The position numbers and the translations under genes were made by a program. Under the pieces are notes generated by a model. That model did no database searches. It had not been told where the DNA came from and worked only from the letters and a program-made list of their open reading frames with translations. This document shows, piece by piece, positions 37,990-51,480 of a stretch of DNA of 64,000 bases (position 1 is its first letter; each line of letters opens with the position of its first letter). Source of the DNA: Candidatus Levyibacteriota bacterium (lineage in GTDB: Bacteria > Patescibacteriota > Microgenomatia > Levybacterales > UBA12049); assembly GCA_963722305.1 (NCBI GenBank), contig CAVRKE010000002.1, positions 251,878 through 315,877 of the forward strand, written 5' to 3'.

Positions 37990-39060
37990 CTAAATAAAGA
38001 AATTGAACCCTTTATCTATTTTCAGCGTATCTGGATTTTCCCCTTCTTCTAAGTGTTTTTTAAGGCCGCTTGTATAAAGCTCTTGCCCCTCTTTCCCTAA
38101 TTTACTCCAAAGAGAATCTGAAAAAACTATGTTTTCGCAATTATTAGCAAGTAAATTTGTCAACAGAATCTTTTTTTGATCATCATTGACCGAAATCAAT
38201 TGTTTTTCTAGGAATGAGTAGTAATCATGGAATTCAGCAAAATAGCTTAACAATACATAAGTCTTCCCATTTTGGGGAAATATCGTAATAAAGAAAATGC
38301 TAGCCGGTTTTTCTAAATCTTGCAGTTGGCTCTTCATATTCCCTTCGAAATCGTAAAGAAAATTTATAGCAGAGCTTACAGAGAATAAATATTCTTCGTT
38401 AAAAGCGATAACTTTTGTTTCTATTAAATCATATTTCTTTTGCTCAAAGCACTCTTTAAATCGGTCGTAAGAAGCGATACTATCTTTTATAGATAGTTCG
38501 CTTCCTGCCACAAATAGAGCGCTATCAATATCTATGATCTGCGCCCTGCTCGTAACATAATTTGATAAAATTTTCAGGTAGGCCTCTTTCGAATATGCCC
38601 TGAAAGCAAACAGGAAATCTTGCTTCTGACTTCCAATTTGATAATCTTTCTCCTCAATTTCTTTAAAAATTAAATTGTCATGAAATTTACAAAAACCTGT
38701 AAAGGTAGTTGCCGAATTCTTGCTAATATCTTTTGCTGAGAGGGTAAATTCAACCGGATCCGTGCTTGGGGTAGGAAAAACCATTTTCACCATACCATTT
38801 TTAGATAATTTTTTTAAAATTTTGTTATTTTGTATTGAGTGTGCGTTAACTATTCCCCCTTTACATTGATCTTTAATTGGATAAAGACAGGTCATTACTT
38901 CTGCATTTTTAAACATTTGGGCCATCTTTACGCTTACAGGTTTCTTCAAACTATCTTGATGTAATTTATTGTTTAAATAACCGCAGGCTTTCCATTTCTT
39001 GCCGCTTCCGCAAATACAAAGCTTGTTCCTTTCAAACCTTAGCTTTAGTTTCTTTTTCAT
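37990..39060 (-). CDS. SEC-C-motif protein with an uncharacterised C-terminal domain
   Basis: 356 aa. N-terminal CICGSGKKWKACGY metal-binding SEC-C motif, then conserved-looking …GGIVNAHSIQNNKIL… and …FTGFCKFHD…. No family assigned. Confidence 0.5.
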   Translation of the reverse strand: MKKKLKLRFERNKLCICGSGKKWKACGYLNNKLHQDSLKKPVSVKMAQMFKNAEVMTCLYPIKDQCKGGIVNAHSIQNNKILKKLSKNGMVKMVFPTPSTDPVEFTLSAKDISKNSATTFTGFCKFHDNLIFKEIEEKDYQIGSQKQDFLFAFRAYSKEAYLKILSNYVTSRAQIIDIDSALFVAGSELSIKDSIASYDRFKECFEQKKYDLIETKVIAFNEEYLFSVSSAINFLYDFEGNMKSQLQDLEKPASIFFITIFPQNGKTYVLLSYFAEFHDYYSFLEKQLISVNDDQKKILLTNLLANNCENIVFSDSLWSKLGKEGQELYTSGLKKHLEEGENPDTLKIDKGFNFFI

Positions 39061-39104
39061 GCTGCTCGGATTATAGTACTATGGGGAATTTTTGGAAAGC
39101 AGGG

Positions 39105-39824
39105 TTAGTTTATTTTGCTTGTGTAGGGTTTTAGTTTTTCTTTTATTTCCAGACATTGCTCGGGAGATAAATAGCCAGTCGAGCACGTTGTTAATAATTT
39201 TTCTAACCACTTTTTACCAATAACATAAACACCATCTACTGGAGCTAATCCAAAATTCATGCGTGTTCTTTTGTTCGCAAAGACTAAGGCGGAAGCAACA
39301 GGAACAGCGTATCCAAGTTGAATCAAAAGATTTTCAACTTCTTTTGATTCGGCATAAGCCTGTTTTAAATCTTTATCTAAATATTTATCGTGAATGATTA
39401 CTCTTTCCGATAAATTTTTAACTTCAATCGTCCAAACTCCTGTTGGCCCAACTACAACACAGTCTATATTTCCTTTTTTATCTCCAATCATTACATCAGA
39501 TAAATAATGAAAACCTTCCGATTTTAACTTATACAAAATGTCTCTAATATCCATTTCTCCATCGTCTCCTTTTATAAAATTTAAATAGATCTTCGCAAAA
39601 AACACCAATAAGCCAAACAAAAAAATATCTACGACTAGAACAACAAGCTGTAAATTAATATTGCCATGCGTATTAATCTTTGAGGTTAAATAAAAAGTTA
39701 TTCCTATGAAACCAAACAATAACGCAGCGAGGGTAATTATTTGAATATTGTAAGAAACTTTTCTCACTGTCTTAATAGAACAACTATTTCCCTTTGAAGT
39801 CAAATTAGAATATGGGAGTGTCAA
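39105..39824 (-). CDS. Membrane-anchored NERD-domain (nuclease-related) protein
   Basis: 239 aa. Two TM helices, then …GEMDIRDILYKLKSEGFHYLSDVMI…NIDCVVVGPTGVWTIEVKN…, matching the NERD pattern. Confidence 0.6.
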   Translation of the reverse strand: MTLPYSNLTSKGNSCSIKTVRKVSYNIQIITLAALLFGFIGITFYLTSKINTHGNINLQLVVLVVDIFLFGLLVFFAKIYLNFIKGDDGEMDIRDILYKLKSEGFHYLSDVMIGDKKGNIDCVVVGPTGVWTIEVKNLSERVIIHDKYLDKDLKQAYAESKEVENLLIQLGYAVPVASALVFANKRTRMNFGLAPVDGVYVIGKKWLEKLLTTCSTGYLSPEQCLEIKEKLKPYTSKIN

Positions 39825-39939
39825 AGATCTCTCTTGTTTCTAGCTTCTTTTTTTATTAAAACACCTGATGAGAATATAGCTTTTTTAATCCAAAAATGCA
39901 ACTAATCATTTTGAATAGGAAGGATATATTTAATACTCA

Positions 39940-40041
39940 TTGACTTACTTTTAATCAGTGTTATAATCGATTCATGAGGTGAATCTGCATCGCAAGGTGT
40001 AGACCACTTCTCCAAAGAAAACTAGTTCGCTAGTTTTTTTT
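39940..40041 (+). ncRNA. Candidate small transcription unit (promoter + about 65-nt RNA + terminator), antisense/adjacent to the DUF3800 3' end
   Basis: TTGACT (39940-39945), 16 nt, TATAAT (39962-39967), then ...AAAACTAG-TTCG-CTAGTTTTTTTT at 40017-40041. The only ORF inside is ATGAGGTGA. Confidence 0.25.
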
Positions 40042-40042
40042 G

Positions 40043-40921
40043 TTATAAGGGATCCATTGTAACCTCTTCTAAATCTACCCCCAAATTTCTTAATTCAGTC
40101 CTAACTTTTTGAATAACTTTAAATCTATTCTTAGGAACATCTGCTAATTCTGCGTTTAATTTTTTAGAAAATCTTAAAGTTTGAAATGAAATATATGAAA
40201 TTAAATCTGCAATTTCAATTCCAGCATCTAAAGATTTCTTATTATGTAGTCTAATGCCTAAAACTTTTTTCCCATAATCCGAATCGATATCAATGTAGGT
40301 ATTGTATATACCTACTAACCTAAGATCAGTCGTTCGATTTGACTCTGCATTTACATAACCAATTGCATCTTCTTCCTTAAGCACGCTTAAATGATAATTT
40401 AATGCTCTTTTTATGGTGAGATCTAATGGAATAAAAATTTTACCGCTTAGTGATTTTTTTAATTTTCTACTAAACTCTTTTTTCTTTAGCTTGTAATCGC
40501 CTGCACTTGAATATGCTGGTGGTTCATCAATATGTAATCTGGATCTAACTTTGGGTAGATCAACATAAAAAGATATTGATTTAAATGTGATATAGCTTAA
40601 GAATTCCATTAATTCTTCTACGGCGTTGTTAAAATTTCGTGAAATAGACAATTCAGTTTTAATAATATGACTTGCCTTAGGATTTTTGCTCTCAAAAAAA
40701 TCAAATGCATGCAAACATTTATAAGGATTCAGTAAATATTTATCTCTCCATTTTTGCATTAGGAGATTTGCTAAAGTTCTCTGTTTTGGATCGATTATTA
40801 CTGCTGTGATAAGAAAGTATCTAAATTTTGACTGTCCAACGTAGGATAATCCTGATTCATCGATATATAAATCAAGTCTAGGATCTTGAATAATTGCATT
40901 TTTCACAATTATATTATACAC
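40043..40921 (-). CDS. DUF3800-family protein
   Basis: 292 aa. N-terminal …LDLYIDESG…, the signature DESG motif. Confidence 0.6.
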   Translation of the reverse strand: MYNIIVKNAIIQDPRLDLYIDESGLSYVGQSKFRYFLITAVIIDPKQRTLANLLMQKWRDKYLLNPYKCLHAFDFFESKNPKASHIIKTELSISRNFNNAVEELMEFLSYITFKSISFYVDLPKVRSRLHIDEPPAYSSAGDYKLKKKEFSRKLKKSLSGKIFIPLDLTIKRALNYHLSVLKEEDAIGYVNAESNRTTDLRLVGIYNTYIDIDSDYGKKVLGIRLHNKKSLDAGIEIADLISYISFQTLRFSKKLNAELADVPKNRFKVIQKVRTELRNLGVDLEEVTMDPL

Positions 40922-41080: not shown

Positions 41081-42262
41081 ATGTTTATCTCAAGAAATAT
41101 TTTACCAAAACTTGAACAGGAACTCGAAAAAAAGGAAGCAACCGTAATTACGGGTATGAGAAGAGTTGGTAAGACCACACTTCTCGTTCACCTTTTTGAT
41201 TCAATAGCTTCCAAAAATAAAACGATCTTTGATCTAGAAAATCCCTTGCACAGACATGTTTTTGAGGAAGAAAACTATGATAATATTTGGAATAATTTAG
41301 CTCAATATGGCATAACCAATAAAGAAAAAGCATATCTTTTTATTGATGAAATACAGAACTTACCAACTATCAGCACCGCCATTAAGTATCTGTACGACCA
41401 TTTTGATATTAAATTCGTGCTCACTGGGTCTAGTAGCTATTATCTTAAGAACCTTTTCCCTGAATCACTCAGCGGAAGAAAAGTTGTGCTCGAATTATAT
41501 CCGCTAACTTTTTCTGAATTCCTAAGTTTTAAAGGGGTAGAAAAAAAATATTTTCCAACTTTTGAGGAAAAGATAAAAAGCAAAAATAAAATAAACTTCG
41601 AGCAACACAAAAAGTATTATGATGAATATATTGAGTTTGGTGGATTTCCCGCAGTAGTGTTAGAGGAAAACAGAGAAAGAAAAAAAATTCTTTTGGAGGA
41701 GATTTTTACTTCGTATTTTGAAAAAGATGCCAAAAATCTAGCCGATTTTAAAGACATGGCAAAACTTAGAGACTTAATTTTACTTTTAGTCCCACGCATA
41801 GGACAACGCATAGAAATAGCAAAGCTTGCCTCAAATCTTTCTCTATCGCGAGAAACAGTATATAACTATTTATATTTCCTCGAACAAACATATTTTATTT
41901 CGTTATTGTCGAAGTTTTCAAAAAGTATTGACCGTCAATCATCCGGAGGAAAAAAATTATTCCTATGTGACAGCGGCATTGCTAATATACTTGGAAAAAT
42001 ATCATTAGGACAGCTTTTTGAACAGAGTGTTTTCCAAAATTTAAGACCCTCTTTTACCTTACATTACTATAACAAGGAAGGAAAGAGCGAAATTGATTTT
42101 ATCGTTGACGAAAAAACTGCTTTGGAAGCTAAGCTTACTTTTTCACTCGCTGATCAGGAATACTTAAAAAGAAAAACATATCCTTTGAATTTAAAAGAGA
42201 CTTATATTGTATCTTTGGACTTCAACGATAGCGAAAACTCCCTTCCAGCAACTGAATTATAA
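41081..42262 (+). CDS. AAA_14/DUF4143-type ATPase (archaeal-ATPase-like)
   Basis: 393 aa. Walker A …ITGMRRVGKTTLL…, Walker B …LFIDEIQ…. DUF4143 C-terminal region. Leaderless-type promoter downstream of the palindrome. Confidence 0.8.
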   Translation: MFISRNILPKLEQELEKKEATVITGMRRVGKTTLLVHLFDSIASKNKTIFDLENPLHRHVFEEENYDNIWNNLAQYGITNKEKAYLFIDEIQNLPTISTAIKYLYDHFDIKFVLTGSSSYYLKNLFPESLSGRKVVLELYPLTFSEFLSFKGVEKKYFPTFEEKIKSKNKINFEQHKKYYDEYIEFGGFPAVVLEENRERKKILLEEIFTSYFEKDAKNLADFKDMAKLRDLILLLVPRIGQRIEIAKLASNLSLSRETVYNYLYFLEQTYFISLLSKFSKSIDRQSSGGKKLFLCDSGIANILGKISLGQLFEQSVFQNLRPSFTLHYYNKEGKSEIDFIVDEKTALEAKLTFSLADQEYLKRKTYPLNLKETYIVSLDFNDSENSLPATEL

Positions 42263-42313: not shown

Positions 42314-43501
42314 TTAAGCTATGAATTCTAAATAATTATGAGGCGTAATAACAGAAAACTTTTCCGACTCTGGATAACTAACCATCCAATCTTTTGGGGG
42401 AAGAACCTCGTTTTTTGTTGACCATTTAAATTCATAAGGAAACAGTTTGCCTTCTCTTTCTTCAATCAAATCTATTTCCCTTTGTTCGTAAGTTCGCCAA
42501 AAGTATGAATATCCATGAATATGTTTATATGATCTTTTTTTCATTCTTTCTATCATCAGAAAGTTTTCCCAAAGACTTCCTATATCATTTCTTGAATCAA
42601 GTCCGTTAAATTGGGAGATTACTGCATTCCGTATACCGTTGTCAAAAAAGAAGTATTTAGACTTGCTTGTTACTTCAGAACGCAAATTTCTGCTGAATGT
42701 GCTCAGGCGGAAAATAATAAAAGCTTTTTCCAAAAGATCCAGATAGCGCCCTACTGTTTTTACATCTATGGCAAGATTTGTCGACAACTCATTTAGGGAA
42801 ACCTCATTCCCTACCTGAAAGGCTAAAAGTTTTAAAAGGTCAAGCAAAGTTTTTGAACCCTTTAATTGTTGAAGAGCAAGTATATCCTTGAAGATGTATG
42901 AATTAACCAGTTCCTCAAGAATTCGTATTTTTTCTTCTTTTGTTTTAGCAGTAATAACCTGAGGATAACTTCCTAGAACAAGATACTCTTCCAATTTTTC
43001 TTTTAAATCATGACTATTATGCTCTGGCAGAAGTTCAAGTTGGGCAATCGGATATAAAGTCAGGGTAGTTTTTCTGCCCATCAGGGGTTCGCCGATTTGG
43101 TTTGAAAGATCGAAAGACGACGAACCCGTTGCGATAACTTTGAGATTCGGCACCTGGTCGACAAGTATTTTGATACCCATTCCGATATTCGGAATGTATT
43201 GCGCTTCGTCAAGCACAATCAGGTCATAACCCTGTGCGTATTCAAGTATTCGCGTGAAATCTTGAGACCCCAACAAATCCTGGATACGGATATTATCGCC
43301 CGAATCCAGCTTATATTTTAAGGTGGTGTTTTTTATAAAATTCTCCAACAGCGTTGTTTTTCCGACTCTTCGGGGACCATAGATGATTAACGCTTGGTTC
43401 GCTTTAAGAAATGGGTTCAAATCATCGTAAAAATGGGCAATCATAGGAAAAATATACCATAATTCCACAAATTTGTCAAATTTTATGGAGTTCAATTCCA
43501 T
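42314..43501 (-). CDS. AAA_14/DUF4143-type ATPase, second copy, convergent with the first. The true start is probably MIAHFYDD, about 43444.
   Basis: 395 aa. …IIYGPRRVGKTTLLENF…, …LVLDEAQYIPN…. A divergent paralog of 41081..42262. Confidence 0.8.
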   Translation of the reverse strand: MELNSIKFDKFVELWYIFPMIAHFYDDLNPFLKANQALIIYGPRRVGKTTLLENFIKNTTLKYKLDSGDNIRIQDLLGSQDFTRILEYAQGYDLIVLDEAQYIPNIGMGIKILVDQVPNLKVIATGSSSFDLSNQIGEPLMGRKTTLTLYPIAQLELLPEHNSHDLKEKLEEYLVLGSYPQVITAKTKEEKIRILEELVNSYIFKDILALQQLKGSKTLLDLLKLLAFQVGNEVSLNELSTNLAIDVKTVGRYLDLLEKAFIIFRLSTFSRNLRSEVTSKSKYFFFDNGIRNAVISQFNGLDSRNDIGSLWENFLMIERMKKRSYKHIHGYSYFWRTYEQREIDLIEEREGKLFPYEFKWSTKNEVLPPKDWMVSYPESEKFSVITPHNYLEFIA

Positions 43502-43678
43502 AGATTAAGCCTATTTTACGTATAATTTATGGATTGAGCCTGACCATGAATAGGCATATCCCGGTTTTAGCGTCGTACAAAAATTTGGTTTACGTCAAGC
43601 TTACAAACAATTGAGCTTAACAACTCTAGTTTTTATACGCCTTGACAAAATTTCATAGTTATGCTATTCTGTACGTAT

Positions 43679-44212
43679 ATGTACAGGATAAATGAACTGT
43701 TGAAGCTAGATCGAAAAATATATCATAGCAACGATTTGGCTATTCTTTGGGAAATTACAAATAAAAATACCCTTTATACAACAATAAAACGTTATGTAAA
43801 AAAGGGGGTTCTAATTCCTGTTTTTAAGGGACTTTATACCACGATTCCCACTACTCAACTTGATCCGTTAGTCCTTGGCACTGCGATTATCCACAGGTAT
43901 ACTTACCTAAGCACCGAATCGGTACTTGTAACACACGGGGTTATTTCGCAAATAACTTACAACTATACCTTCATAAGTAGCCTATCGAAAAAGGTGACTA
44001 TTGAAGATCGAACATTTTTGTTTCGAAGATTAAACCCAAAATTTCTTAATAATCCATTCGGAATCGAAAAAAGAGGAGACGTTTACGTTGCGACTCTTGA
44101 ACGTGCGGTATCGGACATGCTTTACTTCGATCCAAAGTATACATTTGATGTTAAAAAACAAATTGACTGGAAAAAAGTCAAACAAATTCAAAAGGAAGTA
44201 GGATACGTATGA
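43679..44212 (+). CDS. AbiEi-like antitoxin (wHTH + C-terminal domain) of a type IV TA/abortive-infection pair. Start taken at MYRINEL.
   Basis: TTGACA-N17-TATTCT promoter at 43642-43670. 4-nt overlap with the downstream AbiEii gene. Typical size and position. Confidence 0.55.
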   Translation: MYRINELLKLDRKIYHSNDLAILWEITNKNTLYTTIKRYVKKGVLIPVFKGLYTTIPTTQLDPLVLGTAIIHRYTYLSTESVLVTHGVISQITYNYTFISSLSKKVTIEDRTFLFRRLNPKFLNNPFGIEKRGDVYVATLERAVSDMLYFDPKYTFDVKKQIDWKKVKQIQKEVGYV

Positions 44213-44946
44213 TTAACTTAAGACCTCAAGATACAATCCATAAATCCTATTTAAACAGGATCTTAATTGAAGTAATAGATAATCCGATTCTCTCCCAAAA
44301 TTTAGCTTTTAAAGGAGGTACCTGTGCATCCATGCTTGGGTTTCTAGACCGTTTCTCCGTCGACTTGGATTTTGATCTTATTACCGATTTTGACAAAAAA
44401 ATAATCAGAAAAGAGTTTCGACAAGTTTTTAAGAAATTAGATTTGAACATTACAATGGAATATACAAATGTAATATTTTTCCTGGTTAAATATCCAAGTG
44501 CTATAGCAAACCAAAGAAATTCTATTAAAATCAGCTTAAACGACGTAAAGATTAAATCCAACGAATATAAAGTTCAATTTTTCCCTGAAATAGATAGGCT
44601 AATGAATAGCCAGACGATAGAAGCAATGTTTGCCAATAAATTAGTCGCTGCAACTGATAGATATCGAAGATTTCATACTATTGCTGGTCGTGATATTTAT
44701 GATATTCATCATTTTTATACGAGAGGTTATAAATATAAAAGTGAAATTATTAAAGAACGAACCGGTCTTACTAGTTCTGTATACTTAAATAAATTAATCG
44801 AATTCATTAAAGAACACGTTAATCAAAAGATAGTTGACGAAGACCTTAATACGCTACTTCCAAACGATTATTTTCAGCAAATACGTAAAATTCTTATTCC
44901 CGAAACATTATTTTTTCTTTCTGAAAACAAAACTAATAAAATATAA
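44209..44946 (+). CDS. AbiEii/AbiGii-family nucleotidyltransferase toxin (DUF1814)
   Basis: 245 aa. Signature …LAFKGGTCASMLGFLDRFSVDLDFD…. Confidence 0.8.
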   Translation: MINLRPQDTIHKSYLNRILIEVIDNPILSQNLAFKGGTCASMLGFLDRFSVDLDFDLITDFDKKIIRKEFRQVFKKLDLNITMEYTNVIFFLVKYPSAIANQRNSIKISLNDVKIKSNEYKVQFFPEIDRLMNSQTIEAMFANKLVAATDRYRRFHTIAGRDIYDIHHFYTRGYKYKSEIIKERTGLTSSVYLNKLIEFIKEHVNQKIVDEDLNTLLPNDYFQQIRKILIPETLFFLSENKTNKI

Positions 44947-45036
44947 TGTGAAGATAAATTTAATATCTAAATATAATTTGTTTTTCTTCGAGTCGTAAAA
45001 ACTTTGGTTTACGACAAAATTCTTGACAAAAGTAAT

Positions 45037-45065
45037 AGTTCCTAGTACACTAGGAACTAGGAACT
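45037..45065 (+). promoter_or_regulatory. Perfect palindromic operator overlapping the -10 of the wHTH-PRTase gene promoter
   Basis: AGTTCCTAG-TACA-CTAGGAACT at 45037-45058, with an extra AGGAACT half-site at 45059-45065. The promoter is TTGACA (45023-45028), 17 nt, then TACACT. Confidence 0.55.
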
Positions 45066-45066
45066 T

Positions 45067-46041
45067 ATGACACGAACCTCAGATAAAATAATCGAATATA
45101 TTTCAAAAGCTAATCACGCTAGTGGCAAAGAGATCACAAACTATCTTGGGAATATTACCGACAGAGCAGTAAGAAAACAATTAAGATCTCTTTTACAAAA
45201 AGGTATTCTAACAAAGGTCGGAAAACCTCCCAAAGTTTATTACCAAATTAACAATAAGGTGACAGAAAAAAATATCCCTATCGACCAAAAAATCAAAGAT
45301 TTTATTGATAAGCATTACTTATATATCTCGCCAGCGGGAGAATCGCTTGAAGGTTGGAAGGGATTTGTAGCGTGGTGCAATAAAACAAACCAGGATCCTC
45401 TCAAAACAGTAAGGGATTATCAGGTCACATTAAATAAATTTAATAAGTACAAAAAAAATGGGTTAATTGACGGAATGCCAAAAATGAGAAATACCTTTAA
45501 AAAAGTATTTTTAGACAAATTATTTTATCTTGATTTCTATAGTATCGAAAGATTCGGTAAAACAAAACTTGGCCAAATGCTTTTATATGCAAAACAAAGT
45601 CAGAATAGAATTCTAATATCAAGATTGATAGATAACATTAAACCAGACATTTTAAAAATTATTTCGAAATATAAAATAGACGGTGTCATTTACATTCCCC
45701 CAACAGTGAAACGTGAGGTTCAGTTAATGAAAGAGTTAGAAAATAATTTAAGTTTACCGTTAAGAACGTTGGGGGTAACCAAAATAAAAACAGAGATAAT
45801 TGTTCCCCAAAAAACTCTTTCAAAGCTTGAAGACAGGATTGAGAACGCAAGGAAAACAATTATCGTAAATGAACATAACAAGTATAAAAACGTTCTTCTA
45901 ATTGATGACGCTGTGGGATCGGGAGCAACAATGAATGAAACGGCAAAGCAAATAAAGAACAAGGGGCTGGTGTCCGGACAAATACTTGGATTGGCTGTTA
46001 CAGGTAGCTTTAAAGGGTTCGACATTATTAGTGAGGTTTAA
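45067..46041 (+). CDS. Winged-HTH + ComF-like phosphoribosyltransferase (PRTase) domain protein
   Basis: 324 aa. N-terminal wHTH (…GKEITNYLGNITDRAVRKQLRSLLQKGIL…). C-terminal type I PRTase with PRPP motif …VLLIDDAVGSGATMNE…. Confidence 0.6.
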   Translation: MTRTSDKIIEYISKANHASGKEITNYLGNITDRAVRKQLRSLLQKGILTKVGKPPKVYYQINNKVTEKNIPIDQKIKDFIDKHYLYISPAGESLEGWKGFVAWCNKTNQDPLKTVRDYQVTLNKFNKYKKNGLIDGMPKMRNTFKKVFLDKLFYLDFYSIERFGKTKLGQMLLYAKQSQNRILISRLIDNIKPDILKIISKYKIDGVIYIPPTVKREVQLMKELENNLSLPLRTLGVTKIKTEIIVPQKTLSKLEDRIENARKTIIVNEHNKYKNVLLIDDAVGSGATMNETAKQIKNKGLVSGQILGLAVTGSFKGFDIISEV

Positions 46042-46175: not shown

Positions 46176-46574
46176 TTATAGTCGATTGGTAGTCGCATGT
46201 CTTTTTAGCCACTTGGAAATCTCTTCGATCGATAGATGTTGATTCTCGACTTTTAGGGGGAATGCAACAAACTCTTTCTGACTAGCTTCAAGTTCATACC
46301 CGTTCATAAACAAAAACCTTGCAGTTGAAACCATAGCAGTTCTCTTATTGCCGTCTACAAAAGCATGATTAAACATTAAGGAATGAAACAAAGCAGCGGC
46401 TTTGTCAAAAATAGTCTGATACAAATCTTCTCCCCCGAATGAAGATTGCGGTCTCGCAACTGCAGACTGGATAAGACCTATATCTCTTATCCCATGGCTG
46501 CCTCCGTATTTTTCCACCATCTTCTCATGAATTACCAGTATGATATCCAGAGTAAGATAAGAAGTGTTTCTCAC
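46176..46574 (-). CDS. doc: Doc (Fic-family) toxin
   Basis: 132 aa. Fic motif …HAFVDGNKRTA…. Confidence 0.85.
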   Translation of the reverse strand: MRNTSYLTLDIILVIHEKMVEKYGGSHGIRDIGLIQSAVARPQSSFGGEDLYQTIFDKAAALFHSLMFNHAFVDGNKRTAMVSTARFLFMNGYELEASQKEFVAFPLKVENQHLSIEEISKWLKRHATTNRL

Positions 46575-46822
46575 TTTTTTGCAAGTTCGCTCAGTGCGGA
46601 TTTGTATTTGCCGTTAAACTTTTCCAACCAATCCATGAACTCAGGAGTTATACCGCTGGCTTTTCCAACGGAAGATCCCAAGCGACCTACGACGAGAGCA
46701 TCAGCTTCCAGATCCTGCCTGACAACTACTTTCTGTCCCGCTTTCAGCTTCTTTTCTTTGACAAAATTTGCCGGAAGAGTGACTGCCAACGAATTACCGA
46801 CTTTTATAATTGTTTGTTCCAT
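46571..46822 (-). CDS. AbrB/MazE/SpoVT-type antitoxin (Phd-like partner of Doc)
   Basis: 83 aa. …MEQTIIKVGNSLAVTLP… swapped-hairpin beta-barrel motif. 4-nt overlap with doc. Tandem ATGTTATAACA x2 operator-like repeat upstream (46840-46863). Confidence 0.8.
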   Translation of the reverse strand: MEQTIIKVGNSLAVTLPANFVKEKKLKAGQKVVVRQDLEADALVVGRLGSSVGKASGITPEFMDWLEKFNGKYKSALSELAKK

Positions 46823-47019
46823 GTTATAACAATGTTATAACAAAATACACTATTTGTCAAGACGCCCTTAAGGAACTACTTAATCTGACGGGATAATTCA
46901 AGCACAATAGGTTTGTATCATTCCCCTAGAGAAAGGTATACTGAAAACGGAGAGCCAGCGAAAATAGGTTTCGGGATAGTATTTTTACTATGCCCACTGT
47001 TAGAGCAACTGGTCTTCCC

Positions 47020-48175
47020 GGTAAGTAGAAAGCGATCTATTCCTGGTTGTGCTTGAAGGCACACATAACCAACAAGCATATCGTAGTACTTCCTAAGGCA
47101 AGACTTTTAAGCTCTCCTTTTCTTTCTTCTCTTTCTCTTCTTTCTTTAAGGCTTAAAAGAAAAGGAGGTGATGAAAATGATAGTTGTAGGCGTAGATGTC
47201 TCAAAAGACACCCTTGTTGCTGTGGCAATTGATAAATCAATACGAATAAAGCATTCATTTACCGTTAAGAATAACAAGGAAAGTATCGATAAGTGGTTAA
47301 ATGCTCTTCCGTACAAAAAGATGCTGCTCTCTTGTGAGGCAACTGCCGAATACCACAGGGTACTTGCACTTTTGGCTCTTTCTTCTAAAATACCATTGAG
47401 GTTATTAAATCCCATTGTGACTAAGCAATATACCAAAGCAACTGTTCGAAAGAGAAAAACTGACCCTCAAGACGCATTAACCATTGCTAAGCTGGCTCTT
47501 GCCGGAGAAGGAAGGCTGATAAGTACCCAAACTTTTCACATTGCCAAAACCCATGAGAGAACCGCCATAAAGCTAACACACATGAAACAGCGTCTTTTAC
47601 TAATACAACAGCACGTACAAGAGGTAGATCCGGATGATACAGCTTCTTTTGAGGAGTTGCAGGTCTGTATTGATACCATAGAACAGTCAATCAAAGCATT
47701 TAGGAAGAAAGCAGAAGAAGAGGTTGATTCAAAACTTGTTAAACTGCTTTGCTCTATACCGGGAGTGGGAGAAACAATAGCAACGGTACTTCTTGCGGAA
47801 ATCGGAGATATTAATCAGTTCAAATCAGATAAAGCCCTCGTTGCTTATGCGGGATTGGATCCAAAGGTCAAACAATCAGGAGGAAGATTACACCATAATA
47901 CCCATTTAACTAAAAGAGGCTCTCCTTACCTTAGACAGATGCTCTATACAGGAGCTTCTATTGCACAACGGCATGATAAGGAACTTAAGGCGTATTACGA
48001 GAAGAAGAGAGCTGAGGGAAAGAGGTACAAAGAAGCAACCATTGCGGTATCAAGAAAACTGCTCAATAGAGTATATGCAGTTTTAAAAAGGCAGACACCT
48101 TATATACCTGGATGAGATACATCGGTAACACTTTGAGACCAGGGGTCTTGACAAAAGATTCCTGGTCTCTAACGT
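47020..48175 (+). mobile_element. IS110-family element, copy 1 (approximate ends)
   Basis: Contains the transposase 47168..48115. Its ends were inferred by alignment with copy 2: left about ...AAGCGATCTATTCCTGGTTG..., right ...GGGGTCTTGACAAAAGATTCCTGGTCTCT. A CT-rich leader and AGGAGGTGA RBS precede the transposase gene. Confidence 0.55.
47168..48115 (+). CDS. IS110-family transposase (DEDD N-terminal domain + C-terminal HhH domain)
   Basis: 315 aa. N-terminal …VGVDVSKDTL… and C-terminal …SIPGVGETIATVLLAEIGDINQF… typical of the IS110 family. Confidence 0.85.
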   Translation: MMKMIVVGVDVSKDTLVAVAIDKSIRIKHSFTVKNNKESIDKWLNALPYKKMLLSCEATAEYHRVLALLALSSKIPLRLLNPIVTKQYTKATVRKRKTDPQDALTIAKLALAGEGRLISTQTFHIAKTHERTAIKLTHMKQRLLLIQQHVQEVDPDDTASFEELQVCIDTIEQSIKAFRKKAEEEVDSKLVKLLCSIPGVGETIATVLLAEIGDINQFKSDKALVAYAGLDPKVKQSGGRLHHNTHLTKRGSPYLRQMLYTGASIAQRHDKELKAYYEKKRAEGKRYKEATIAVSRKLLNRVYAVLKRQTPYIPG

Positions 48176-49734: not shown

Positions 49735-50885
49735 CTGGAATCTTTTGTCAAGACCCCAGGCCCGAAACTCATATTGCTTTGACAACGTAGGGCGTTTGTC
49801 TTTTCCACACAGCGTAAGTACGATAGAGTAGTTTTCTTGCAACAGCAACAGTTGCTTCTTTGTAAAACTTACCTTCGCCTCTTTTCTTCTCGTAATATGT
49901 TTTAAGTTCCATATCATATCGCTGTGCAATACTGGCTGCAAGAAAAACTGTTCGTCGTAAATACGGTGACCCCCTTTTAGTCAGATGAGTATTATGATGG
50001 AGTCCAATGCCACTTTGTTTTACCCTGGGATCAAGACCACAAAAGGCAATTAAACAATCTCCACTGGGAAATCTGGTGATATCCCCAATTTCCGCAATTA
50101 ATGTAGTTGCAATAGTTGTTCCGACACCGGGAATACTCATTAACAGCGTGTGTAACTTTGCATCAACAGTTTTTTCCGCAAAACTCTTGAATACTTTTTG
50201 TGATTTTTGCAACTGCTGTTGACAGAGTTCTAACTGTTTTACCAATGATTCATCCATAGCAATCAACTGTAATTGTTGCTGCATTAGAATAAGCATCTGT
50301 TCCATTTGGTTAAGTTTTACTGCGGTACGTACAGCCGGTTTGCCTTGAGTAAACATGGTTTTTGTAAGTAATGTTCCTTCTCCTTGCCCAACAAGTTTTG
50401 CAACAACAAAGGCATCAGATAAATCAGTTTTTCTTTTTCTAACTGTTGCCCTAGTGAATTGTTTTGTCACTATTGGATTAAGTAAGCGAAAAGTTATCCC
50501 TCTATCCAAACAGGCAAAAGCAAGTATCTGATGATAATATCCGGTTGCTTCGGAACCAATAACTATTCTTTTCCATTTCCCGGTAACTCTTTCCAAGAAT
50601 TGTTCGATTGCGCCTTTGGTATTTTCTATGAAGAATTGTTCTTTGACACGAGATGACCGATCGATCCTAACGCCAACAAGACTATCTTTGGCCACATCGA
50701 TACCAATAACTTGCATAATTTTTCACCTCCTTCCTTTGCTCTTAATTAAAGAAGGAAGAGAAAGAGAAGGAAGAAATGGAGTTTGCCAAAAAGGTCTCCC
50801 GGTGATAATATATCGGTAGGCTTGTTTGTGATCAGCGGCTAAAACCCGCAACCTGGAATCGATCGCTTACATTATCGGGGAGACC
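49735..50885 (-). mobile_element. IS110-family element, copy 2 (inverted relative to copy 1; approximate ends)
   Basis: Contains the transposase 49769..50716. The right end ...GGGGTCTTGACAAAAGATTCCAGGTCTAG abuts the stop of the propeller gene. The left end aligns with copy 1 at about 50860-50885. Confidence 0.55.
49769..50716 (-). CDS. IS110-family transposase (about 55% identical paralog of 47168..48115)
   Basis: 315 aa with the same motif layout (…IGIDVAKDSL…, …SIPGVGTTIATTLIAEIGDITRF…). Confidence 0.85.
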   Translation of the reverse strand: MQVIGIDVAKDSLVGVRIDRSSRVKEQFFIENTKGAIEQFLERVTGKWKRIVIGSEATGYYHQILAFACLDRGITFRLLNPIVTKQFTRATVRKRKTDLSDAFVVAKLVGQGEGTLLTKTMFTQGKPAVRTAVKLNQMEQMLILMQQQLQLIAMDESLVKQLELCQQQLQKSQKVFKSFAEKTVDAKLHTLLMSIPGVGTTIATTLIAEIGDITRFPSGDCLIAFCGLDPRVKQSGIGLHHNTHLTKRGSPYLRRTVFLAASIAQRYDMELKTYYEKKRGEGKFYKEATVAVARKLLYRTYAVWKRQTPYVVKAI

Positions 50886-51167: not shown

Positions 51168-51359
51168 TTAAAATAAATCAGGAGTTATACCGCTGGCTTT
51201 TCCAACGGAAGATCCCAAGCGACCTACGACGAGAGCATCAGCTTCCAGATCCTGCCTGACAACTACTTTCTGTCCCGCTTTCAGCTTCTTTTCTTTGACA
51301 AAATTTGCCGGAAGAGTGACTGCCAACGAATTACCGACTTTTATAATTGTTTGTTCCAT
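51168..51359 (-). pseudogene. Truncated duplicate of the AbrB-type antitoxin gene (first about 60 codons identical to 46571..46822) with its promoter/operator, lacking the doc partner
   Basis: 51176-51403 is nearly identical to 46636-46866 (about 230 bp). The ORF diverges and stops after …GITPDLF. Confidence 0.6.
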
Positions 51360-51480
51360 GTTATAACAATGTTATAACAAACTACACTATTTGTCAAGAC
51401 GGTTCATAGTCGCACAATCTATGTTTGCGAAAAATTAGATGTAAATTAATTTTGGGATTCTAGTACTTTGGGGAAGGAAG

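Follow-up and report, generated by a model that had tools for sequence, protein, structure and literature searches.

A winged-helix protein with a ComF-type phosphoribosyltransferase domain and a co-varying operator at its own promoter, widespread in Patescibacteria

In this study, we analysed a 64-kb stretch of DNA from a Candidatus Levyibacteriota bacterium (hereafter the window) and, within it, a single gene whose 324-amino-acid product joins an N-terminal winged helix-turn-helix (wHTH) to a phosphoribosyltransferase (PRTase) domain of the ComF type at the C-terminus. We found that an operator of three half-sites lies across the promoter of this gene, and the way in which the half-sites vary with the recognition helix of the protein indicates that the operator is real and has co-evolved with it. 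The gene is a solo accessory cassette, made of promoter, operator and coding sequence (CDS), which occurs in variable places and often near toxin-antitoxin and defence genes. We propose, with a probability of about 0.4, that this cassette is a one-gene, self-contained, horizontally spread and autorepressed conflict module in which the PRTase is the output.

Results

The operator and its covariation with the recognition helix

The gene and its control region comprise the following features.

45023-45028, plus strand: -35 hexamer TTGACA, from the promoter scan
45037-45065, plus strand: operator of three 7-bp half-sites, AGTTCCT (45037-45043), AGGAACT (45052-45058) and AGGAACT (45059-45065)
45046-45051, plus strand: -10 hexamer TACACT, within the spacer and right arm of the palindrome
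45067-46041, plus strand: wHTH-PRTase CDS, 324 amino acids, ATG start, stop codon at 46039-46041

The promoter, TTGACA-17-TACACT, matches the consensus at 10 of 12 positions and is the joint-best sigma-70-type match in the scanned region. TTGACA, or a near match at equal distance, is also present in the promoters of many relatives. The first two half-sites of the operator form a perfect 9+9 palindrome around TACA (AGTTCCTAG-TACA-CTAGGAACT, 45037-45058), and the third ends one base 5' of the ATG. An earlier note on this DNA had placed the -10 box inside a palindrome followed by an extra AGGAACT half-site, and the coordinates bear this out. With up to three mismatches allowed, the palindromic 22-mer has a single site in the window and no match in 100 shuffles; the pattern AGTTCCT-N6-10-AGGAACT was found once in the window, against 0.01 expected. 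Given that the three half-sites span the -10 box, the expected start site and a Shine-Dalgarno-like AGGA, their occupancy should block RNA polymerase, a geometry that points to negative autoregulation.

When upstream regions of homologues from unrelated contexts were compared, only the promoter and the operator proved to be common to them. The operator layout is kept across about 80 species-level loci, with three and sometimes four 7-bp units, one or two of them oriented one way and two or one the other (a 2L+1R variant exists). The sequence of the unit depends on the clade, and the spacer TAnACT is conserved within the AGGAACT class. To assess covariation, the recognition helix was set against the 110 nt upstream of the gene in 117 non-redundant cases. 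Proteins with Arg36 (helix xRA[VI]RKQL) have the inverted GGAAC/GTTCC pair in 85 of 87 promoters, and the remaining two carry degenerate forms of this pair. Where position 36 is Phe, His, Ser, Tyr or Lys, the GGAAC pair is found in none of 30 promoters, which carry GTCAAC, ATGAAC, GTAAAC or GTATAC in the same layout. The Fisher p value for residue 36 against GGAAC, 7e-26, is uncorrected for phylogeny and inflated by shared ancestry. At least four operator classes exist, and those other than the Arg36 class pair as follows.

Helix QA[LV]F or QALY: half-site GTCAACT or ATCAACT
Helix RAVF: half-site ATGAACT or ATGCACT
Helix xxxH or MAVS: half-site GTAAACT, GTATACT or GTACACT

Within the half-site, the 3' AACT is constant, and the three bases at its start vary along with residues 33 and 36. 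Neither an RNA hairpin nor chance can explain this pattern. The comparison strongly supports recognition by the winged helix of 7-bp half-sites at its own promoter, and such binding would almost certainly repress its own transcription. The autoregulation suspected in the earlier note thus gains support from an operator that is kept in unrelated flanks and covaries with the recognition helix, and the protein resembles an autoregulated winged-helix repressor in having an operator of inverted and direct repeats over its own promoter.

The Melainabacteria copies (L075:1153 and L082:5989, upstream) carry nested mixed operators, AGTTCCT AGTTCAC ... GTGAACT AGGAACT ATGAAC, in which two half-site classes are combined.

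Protein architecture and affiliation of the PRTase domain

The protein can be divided into three parts, and the PRTase core contains three conserved segments. PRPP stands for phosphoribosyl pyrophosphate.

45067-45252, plus strand: wHTH, residues 1-62 (AlphaFold2, Foldseek, Pfam and covariation)
45286-45672, plus strand: middle region, residues 74-202 (about 130 amino acids), mixed alpha/beta (AlphaFold2 and alignments)
45673-46020, plus strand: type I PRTase core of the ComF/RqlH/ShosT type, residues 203-318, Rossmann-like (Foldseek, PADLOC and Pfam)
45712-45714, plus strand: R216, in the loop after strand 206-209 (PPTVKRE), invariant in 50 divergent members
45805-45849, plus strand: flexible-loop segment PQKTLSKLEDRIENA, with Q248 and N260 invariant and R257 nearly so
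45892-45933, plus strand: PRPP loop VLLIDDAVGSGATM, residues 276-289, with D280 invariant and D281, S285, G286 and A287 nearly so

The AlphaFold2 model, computed from 28 homologues, has a mean predicted local distance difference test score of 82.9 and a predicted template modelling score of 0.71. Its wHTH consists of helices 4-15, 20-27 and 32-44 and wing strands 48-53 and 56-61. Residues 32-44 (DRAVRKQLRSLLQ) form the recognition helix, in which R33 and R36 vary by operator class. Foldseek matched this domain to AspA, MecI, Fur and YodB in the PDB, and the Pfam families MarR_2, HTH_24 and HTH_5 match the N-terminus across family members. In the middle region, a beta-hairpin with one conserved Cys (C104) occupies the place where ComF and RqlH have a four-cysteine zinc finger, and a helical segment, FGKTKLGQ...AKQSQ, bears the family-invariant K176. 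The PRTase core is built on strands 206-209, 237-239, 276-283 and 306-313. The best Foldseek match in the PDB is ComFC of Helicobacter pylori (7p0h, E 1.3e-4, 182 aligned columns), followed at the C-terminus by PurF, XPRT, APRT, ShosT (8zvc) and PyrR; PurR of Bacillus subtilis is absent among the best 50 matches listed. Sequence searches of the PDB, with the single protein and with a profile, returned ferritin, AspA and OPRT only, all sub-threshold. In the BFVD viral folds, we found isolated HTH or PRTase matches and no full-length analogue.

The Pfam matches of the window protein (Pribosyltran, PRTase-CE and HxlR) are all sub-threshold, and a literature search on PRTase-CE found nothing. The NCBIfam comF model (TIGR00201) aligns with residues 173-310 at 28.9 bits, below its cut-off of 233.55. 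The PADLOC profile of PsyrT, the protein also known as RqlH, is matched with E 2.5e-17, residues 4-312 of the query lying on positions 366-682 of 689; the relation to RqlH rests on this profile. Among 50 divergent family representatives (27-57% identity), all match PsyrT (best 1e-18), 36 match ShosT (best 1.7e-12) and 36 match the retron profile PRTase_III-A (best 6e-8, in the PRPP-loop region only). Hence, a PRTase domain of the ComF/RqlH/ShosT type, and not of the PurR type, is strongly supported. The earlier note had recognised a wHTH fused to a ComF-like PRTase with an intact PRPP loop; the reading frame, AlphaFold2, Foldseek and PADLOC agree with the fusion, and the loop is intact.

Only P55 and Y59 (in the wing), K176, R216, Q248, N260 and D280 are invariant in the 50 divergent members, and D281, S285, G286, A287 and R257 are nearly so. 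The earlier note had proposed a check of the conservation of the catalytic acidic residues; in the PRPP loop, it is complete at D280 and almost complete at D281. Among 28 close homologues, K37 of the recognition helix is nearly invariant and Q38 is invariant. In these alignments, constraint is strongest at the ligand pocket, which probably binds PRPP or a nucleotide. R216 probably represents an Arg following strand 2 whose conservation has been reported in ComFC-like PRTases (PMC5512222). Likewise, the strand order in the model and the description of ComFC (PMC9005727) suggest that PQKTLSKLEDRIENA corresponds to the ComF flexible-loop signature. The PRPP loop is equivalent to residues 157-DDIITTGTTL-166 of ComFC, which bind PRPP in the crystal structure (PMC9005727). 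A four-cysteine finger is absent: C104 is the sole conserved Cys in the 28 close members, and no Cys is found among the columns invariant in the 50. No helicase family of Pfam was matched by the window protein, or stands among the families most matched by the 50 members.

Distribution and mobility of the family

A word-indexed search retrieved 3,421 homologous proteins, the best 120 of which are all 323-326 amino acids long and 61-71% identical. An exhaustive search of 50%-identity representatives gave 715 clusters with a threshold of E <= 1e-3 and 211 with one of E <= 1e-30; almost all have about 325 amino acids. We confirmed 419 loci in species representatives (53-69% identity), a count that takes one genome per species and comes from a pattern-limited scan. 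The carriers within Patescibacteria are Levy-, Roizman-, Woese-, Collier-, Beckwith-, Moran-, Falkow-, Nealson-, Zambryski- and Kerfeldbacteria, Peregrinibacteria and Saccharibacteria; beyond them, two Melainabacteria and one Saganbacteria carry the gene. Database names for members are "hypothetical" or "HTH type 11 domain-containing", and some JGI entries read "hypoxanthine-guanine phosphoribosyltransferase".

Several observations bear on mobility. An identical 324-amino-acid sequence (cluster P0098) is present in metagenome-assembled genomes labelled Candidatus Roizmanbacteria and Candidatus Levybacteria, which is due either to a recent transfer or to cross-assignment during binning. In 7 of 60 loci, a tRNA gene is located upstream of the family gene at no more than about 600 bp, six times in the same orientation and once on the opposite strand, and this fits the expectation for insertion hot spots. 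The six tRNA genes in the same orientation (Lys, Glu or Arg) lie about 70-500 bp from the family gene.

L001:5794-5867, same orientation: upstream tRNA
L006:5666-5740, same orientation: upstream tRNA
L024:5423-5496, same orientation: upstream tRNA
L049:5854-5926, same orientation: upstream tRNA
L052:634-706, same orientation: upstream tRNA
L056:5849-5925, same orientation: upstream tRNA

Decayed family genes were found at four loci, each with an intact operator and CDS fragments.

L103:1534-1555: operator, with a remnant of residues 143-193
L125:1157-1178: operator, with a remnant of residues 143-193
L127:9882-9903: operator, with a remnant of residues 143-184
L113:12689-12710: operator, with a remnant of residues 8-50

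An accessory and mobile gene that has spread horizontally is the best reading of this distribution. At one further locus, L026, a tRNA-like 3' fragment lies directly 5' of the -35 box.

Genomic context

In the window, the gene has the following neighbours.

37990-40921, minus strand: SEC-C-motif (356 amino acids), NERD-domain (239 amino acids) and DUF3800 (292 amino acids) proteins, in a low-GC stretch
41081-42262, plus strand: AAA_14/DUF4143 ATPase, PADLOC PDC-S01, E 4.5e-67
42314-43501, minus strand: AAA_14/DUF4143 ATPase, PADLOC PDC-S01, E 8e-141, convergent with the preceding gene
43661-44212: AbiEi, upstream of the wHTH-PRTase gene
44209-44946: AbiEii, upstream of the wHTH-PRTase gene
46176-46574, minus strand: Doc, downstream and convergent
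46571-46822, minus strand: MazE/AbrB-type (Phd-like) antitoxin, downstream and convergent

The location between the AbiE and Doc modules, given in the earlier note, was thus confirmed. GC content is 32-36% at 36-48 kb and 41-44% on either side, and PDC-S01 ATPases occur near the family gene in six further loci. The proposal that the protein regulates this island did not hold: the window has no further operator, the only sites found in the flanks of 82 family genes, 858 kb in all, are at promoters of family genes, and the neighbours are not conserved. Seven apparent extra operators all proved to be such promoters, of family genes missed in gene prediction.

Clustering of the neighbours of these 82 loci revealed no family in more than seven of them and no conserved partner. 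The clusters that do recur are PDC-S01 ATPases, RelE-like toxins, Fic proteins, AbiEi and RelB-like antitoxins. Moreover, the 133 immediately adjacent proteins of about 80 loci match 137 Pfam families, none of them in more than three proteins; they range from tRNA synthetases, proteases and glycosyltransferases to Fic, PIN, AbiEii, Phd, a Type ISP restriction enzyme and IS200. No recurrent competence, purine, DprA-like or reverse transcriptase neighbour was found, and comEC, comFA and dprA are not among the 25 Pfam families listed. As no neighbour is conserved, an operon partner or antitoxin was rejected, and so were contexts of competence and of purine metabolism. The earlier note had stated that best matches to housekeeping ComF proteins, together with a conserved competence locus, would speak against its view; the comF score lies far below the cut-off, and the roughly 80 loci have no recurrent neighbour family. 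An Rfam scan of 36-52 kb matched no family, retron non-coding RNA included, and scans of ten neighbouring window proteins with Pfam and PADLOC found no reverse transcriptase.

Positions 46638-46864 and 51175-51401, 4.5 kb apart, form a direct repeat of 227 nt with 99% identity. Both copies span the 5' part of a Phd-like antitoxin gene, and the second antitoxin (51168-51359) is truncated and without a Doc gene. Between the repeats lie two transposase-like genes, read as IS110-type (47168-48115, plus strand; 49769-50716, minus strand), and a gene for a 483-amino-acid repeat protein.

Operator copies without the gene

A metagenome scan for AGTTCCTANTANACTAGGAACT returned at least 120 stretches, of which 80 loci were listed. 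Fifty of these 80 sites lie 0-40 nt upstream of a family gene, 14 are too near a contig end to judge, and 16 have room on both sides and no adjacent family gene. Operators were found in front of other genes at the following places.

L106:838-859, L133:1296-1317, L140:1084-1105 and L149:1724-1745: full three-half-site operator (e.g. AGTTCCTAATACACTAGGAACTAGGAACT), then a Zn-ribbon gene, then a gene for a 174-184-amino-acid protein
L156:1712-1733: full operator, a 152-amino-acid open reading frame, then the same 174-184-amino-acid protein
L138:5542-5563 (= L209): full operator before a DUF3310-type gene, on an IMG/VR viral contig
L147:6875-6909: operator of four half-sites before a type-IV-secretion-like cluster
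L096:920-941: operator before a hicB-hicA-type pair
L128:2255-2276: palindrome only, in the divergent promoter region between two PDC-S01-type AAA_14/DUF4143 ATPase genes
L142:1246-1267: operator before a 235-amino-acid open reading frame read as HolA-like
L109:2255-2276: operator before a gene for a 447-amino-acid protein with a hydrophobic N-terminus

Homologues of the 174-184-amino-acid protein match PF09524 or PF14297, are named "phage protein TIGR02220" by JGI, and lie on contigs of 30-52 kb with an SU10-type portal. The L138 contig also has phage exonuclease and nucleotide-kinase-type families. Altogether, these positions indicate use of the operator on mobile DNA as well, phage-like and other. 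The scan of IMG/VR gave three matches, two of which lie inside a phage tail gene, have two half-sites only and were treated as chance. No family gene was found in the visible part of the operator-bearing phage-like contigs, most of which are short.

Repeats of GGAACTCC in the related phages L211-L215 are located inside the replication gene and were rejected as a further operator. Iteron-like repeats inside the phage replication-protein gene, AAGGAACTCC in three copies or GCAACTCC variants, were seen at L211:10314-10360, L213:10305-10350 and L133:1949-1990. They have a GGAACT core in common with the operator in a different layout, and are probably a phage origin. An element of about 40 nt, AAATAAAAAGTTCCTANTANACTAGGAACTAAATAGAATAA, contains the palindrome only (L129:2146-2167, L150:863-884, L135:3685-3706 and L139:2442-2463); it recurs beside Fic genes and beside a small gene pair read by eye as a HigB/HigA-type toxin-antitoxin.

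Discussion

In the conflict module that we propose, the winged helix would bind the three half-sites at its own promoter, where they span the -10 box, start site and ribosome-binding region. The protein would in this way hold its own synthesis at a low set level, a step strongly supported by the operator comparison. As homology and conservation suggest, the PRTase would be a PRPP-dependent output, genotoxic or purine-disrupting, like PsyrT/RqlH, ShosT and retron III-A. Not a separate antitoxin but the N-terminal half of the chain would keep it harmless, through dosage and possibly through intramolecular restraint. It has been reported that RqlH toxicity requires the PRPP-loop Asp and that the PRTase segment 509-690 alone is non-toxic (PMC4670107), which argues that the upstream parts matter. 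Similarly, ShosT toxicity requires PRPP binding (PMC12961424). The operators found before replication genes on phage-like contigs raise the further idea that the winged helix may recognise incoming DNA, either silencing its promoter or, by titration of the repressor, letting the PRTase level rise.

Several points weigh against this proposal. Autorepression as the sole control of a toxin is unusual. PurR, which is non-catalytic, also retains the PRPP motif, so that conservation of the motif is no proof of catalysis. Unlike in PsyrTA and ShosTA, no DprA-like neighbour or antitoxin partner was seen among the window neighbours or the clusters inspected. The two copies in one Collierbacteria genome (L072 and L083) have the same operator class, which speaks against diversification through avoidance of cross-talk. 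As for the phage link, the few cases are one contig of IMG/VR and five phage-like contigs, all short, that bear the operator; searches of IMG/VR, INPHARED phages and PLSDB plasmids found no homologue, and operator and family gene are both absent from three longer related phages (40-52 kb, from the L211-L215 set with a related replication gene). Finally, PRTases of the ComF type have no known enzymatic activity, and the nearest structure, ComFC, is that of a non-toxin (PMC9005727).

The strongest rival, which we regard as possible although rather unlikely, is a ligand-gated repressor with the logic of PurR and without its ancestry. The PRTase would then be non-catalytic and sense PRPP, a nucleotide or an alarmone, and the protein would repress its own promoter and those of phage and mobile genes in the manner of an immunity repressor. 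In PurR and PyrR, PRTase domains have taken on the role of sensors, and ComFC binds PRPP in the crystal and nucleoside monophosphates in solution with no known catalysis (PMC9005727). The presence of the operator on phage-like DNA is the main reason why this explanation stays strong: the three-half-site operator precedes phage replication, DUF3310-type, type-IV-secretion-like and hicAB genes, and the existence of at least four operator and helix classes resembles phage hetero-immunity. However, the lack of a second operator in the window or in the 858 kb around 82 family genes means that any regulon would be unlinked. The operator-bearing phage-like contigs show no family gene, nor does any viral, plasmid or phage record encode one; some orphan operators are remnants of decayed family genes (L103, L125, L127 and L113). 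Moreover, the relatives of known role at the sequence level (PsyrT, ShosT and retron III-A) are all toxic effectors.

A bolder form of the proposed module, which we consider improbable, is a single-polypeptide anti-phage immunity of bacteria of the candidate phyla radiation (CPR). The wHTH would read an operator shared by its own promoter and the replication promoters of CPR phages; incoming copies would either be silenced directly or, by titration of the repressor, unleash a DNA-modifying or PRPP-draining PRTase. The operator copies on phage-like DNA hint at such a function. If this were true, the classes of operator and recognition helix would be immunity specificities in an arms race, and the system would offer the first tractable handle on the chemistry of ComF-type PRTases.

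It is quite unlikely that the protein is a housekeeping analogue of PurR or PyrR that controls purine or pyrimidine salvage in reduced genomes. Patescibacteria rely on nucleotide salvage, the order of wHTH and PRTase is that of B. subtilis PurR, and the hypoxanthine-guanine phosphoribosyltransferase label of some JGI annotations would fit. On the other hand, the gene has a patchy distribution, two copies in one genome and a place within a low-GC island. It has no PurR or PuR_N match, and no purine or pyrimidine families are listed among the 133 neighbours. In addition, operator specificity differs between close relatives, so that a whole regulon would have to change with it, and no further operators are found in the flanks.

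More unlikely still is a role in competence, in which a ComFC-like protein with a winged helix in place of the zinc finger would handle incoming DNA. ComFC is the best match among solved structures, the comF model aligns over residues 173-310, and Saccharibacteria are naturally competent (PMC10633639). Nevertheless, the score of that model, the absence of the four-cysteine finger, with C104 only, and neighbours without a recurrent family or any listed comEC, comFA or dprA all argue otherwise. Sequence-specific binding of a double-stranded operator and autorepression are also foreign to ComFC, and the gene is accessory, not universal. Least probable is that the palindrome acts as an RNA hairpin, a terminator or a 5' untranslated-region structure: a perfect 9-bp stem with a 4-nt loop is possible and the terminator scan flags the minus strand (stem 45059-45036, then a T-rich tail), but no minus-strand gene ends nearby, the predicted start inside or after the right arm leaves most of the stem untranscribed from this promoter, and neither the third, directly repeated half-site and the 2L+1R variant nor the tracking of half-sites by residues 33 and 36 would be explained.

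The ComF-type PRTase is essential for natural transformation and is the toxic part of RqlH/PsyrT, and its reaction is unassigned (PMC9005727, PMC4670107). A small, soluble-looking, helicase-less protein with a defined DNA target is a simple system in which to approach this chemistry. Furthermore, the match between residues 33 and 36 and the first three bases of the NNNAACT half-site amounts to a DNA-recognition code in a lineage with hardly any studied transcription factors. If the operators on phage-like contigs prove functional, their classes could help to assign uncultured CPR phages to hosts and would reveal a new kind of immunity.

Comparison with known systems

The gene is neither PsyrTA, ShosTA, a retron, canonical ComFC nor PurR. 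RqlH (= PsyrT) consists of a RecQ-like helicase (1-346), an "RqlH-specific linker", a tetracysteine domain and a C-terminal ComF-like PRTase (PMC3378886, PMC4670107). It is restrained by the DprA-like RqlI, and the PRPP-loop aspartate is needed for its genotoxicity (PMC3378886, PMC4670107). The window protein has in common with it the ComF-like PRTase with a DD PRPP loop, and its alignment to PsyrT 366-682 makes it a helicase-less counterpart of the C-terminal half of RqlH. In contrast, the RecQ-like helicase and the tetracysteine zinc domain have no counterpart here, and a gene for a DprA-like RqlI/PsyrA partner is not adjacent. The region of the linker is, in our protein, a sequence-specific winged helix with its own operator, and the full-length match suggests a winged helix for the RqlH-specific linker, too.

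ShosT has a related PRTase domain (36 of 50 PADLOC matches; Foldseek 8zvc). However, its N-terminus is a pyrophosphatase-like domain where ours is a winged helix, and it is paired with the DprA-like antitoxin ShosA, for which no similar neighbour was found here. The PRTase effectors of retron type III-A come with a fused or a separate winged helix. In retrons, the PRTase is N-terminal and the winged helix C-terminal (PMC7736814), whereas the domain order is reversed in the family described here. No reverse transcriptase was detected among the ten neighbouring proteins scanned, and no msr-msd non-coding RNA at 36-52 kb.

Like ComFC, the window protein has the PRPP loop and, probably, the flexible-loop segment and the PPi-loop Arg that is conserved after strand 2. 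Unlike ComFC, it has an extra N-terminal winged helix and no four-cysteine zinc finger, its gene is accessory, autoregulated and outside a competence locus, and its match to the comF hidden Markov model is far below the cut-off.

The resemblance to PurR-type repressors drawn in the earlier note stands as an analogy of architecture and fails as homology. As in B. subtilis PurR, an N-terminal winged helix is followed by a PRTase fold that retains the PRPP motif and the protein is a repressor at its own promoter region, which makes PurR the obvious model for ligand-gated DNA binding. Yet Pfam, NCBIfam and PDB sequence searches gave no sign of homology, a RqlH/ComF-type insert of about 130 amino acids lies between the domains, neither a purine regulon nor a PurBox is seen, and the window gene is patchy and horizontally spread.

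Taken singly, the parts are therefore known: a winged-helix autorepressor, ComF-type PRTases in PsyrT/RqlH, ShosT and retrons, and the gating of DNA binding by a PRTase fold, for which PurR is the precedent. Apparently undescribed is their arrangement, in which an N-terminal wHTH, a cysteine-poor RqlH-type middle region and a ComF-type PRTase are encoded by a solo, autoregulated gene that is widespread in Patescibacteria.

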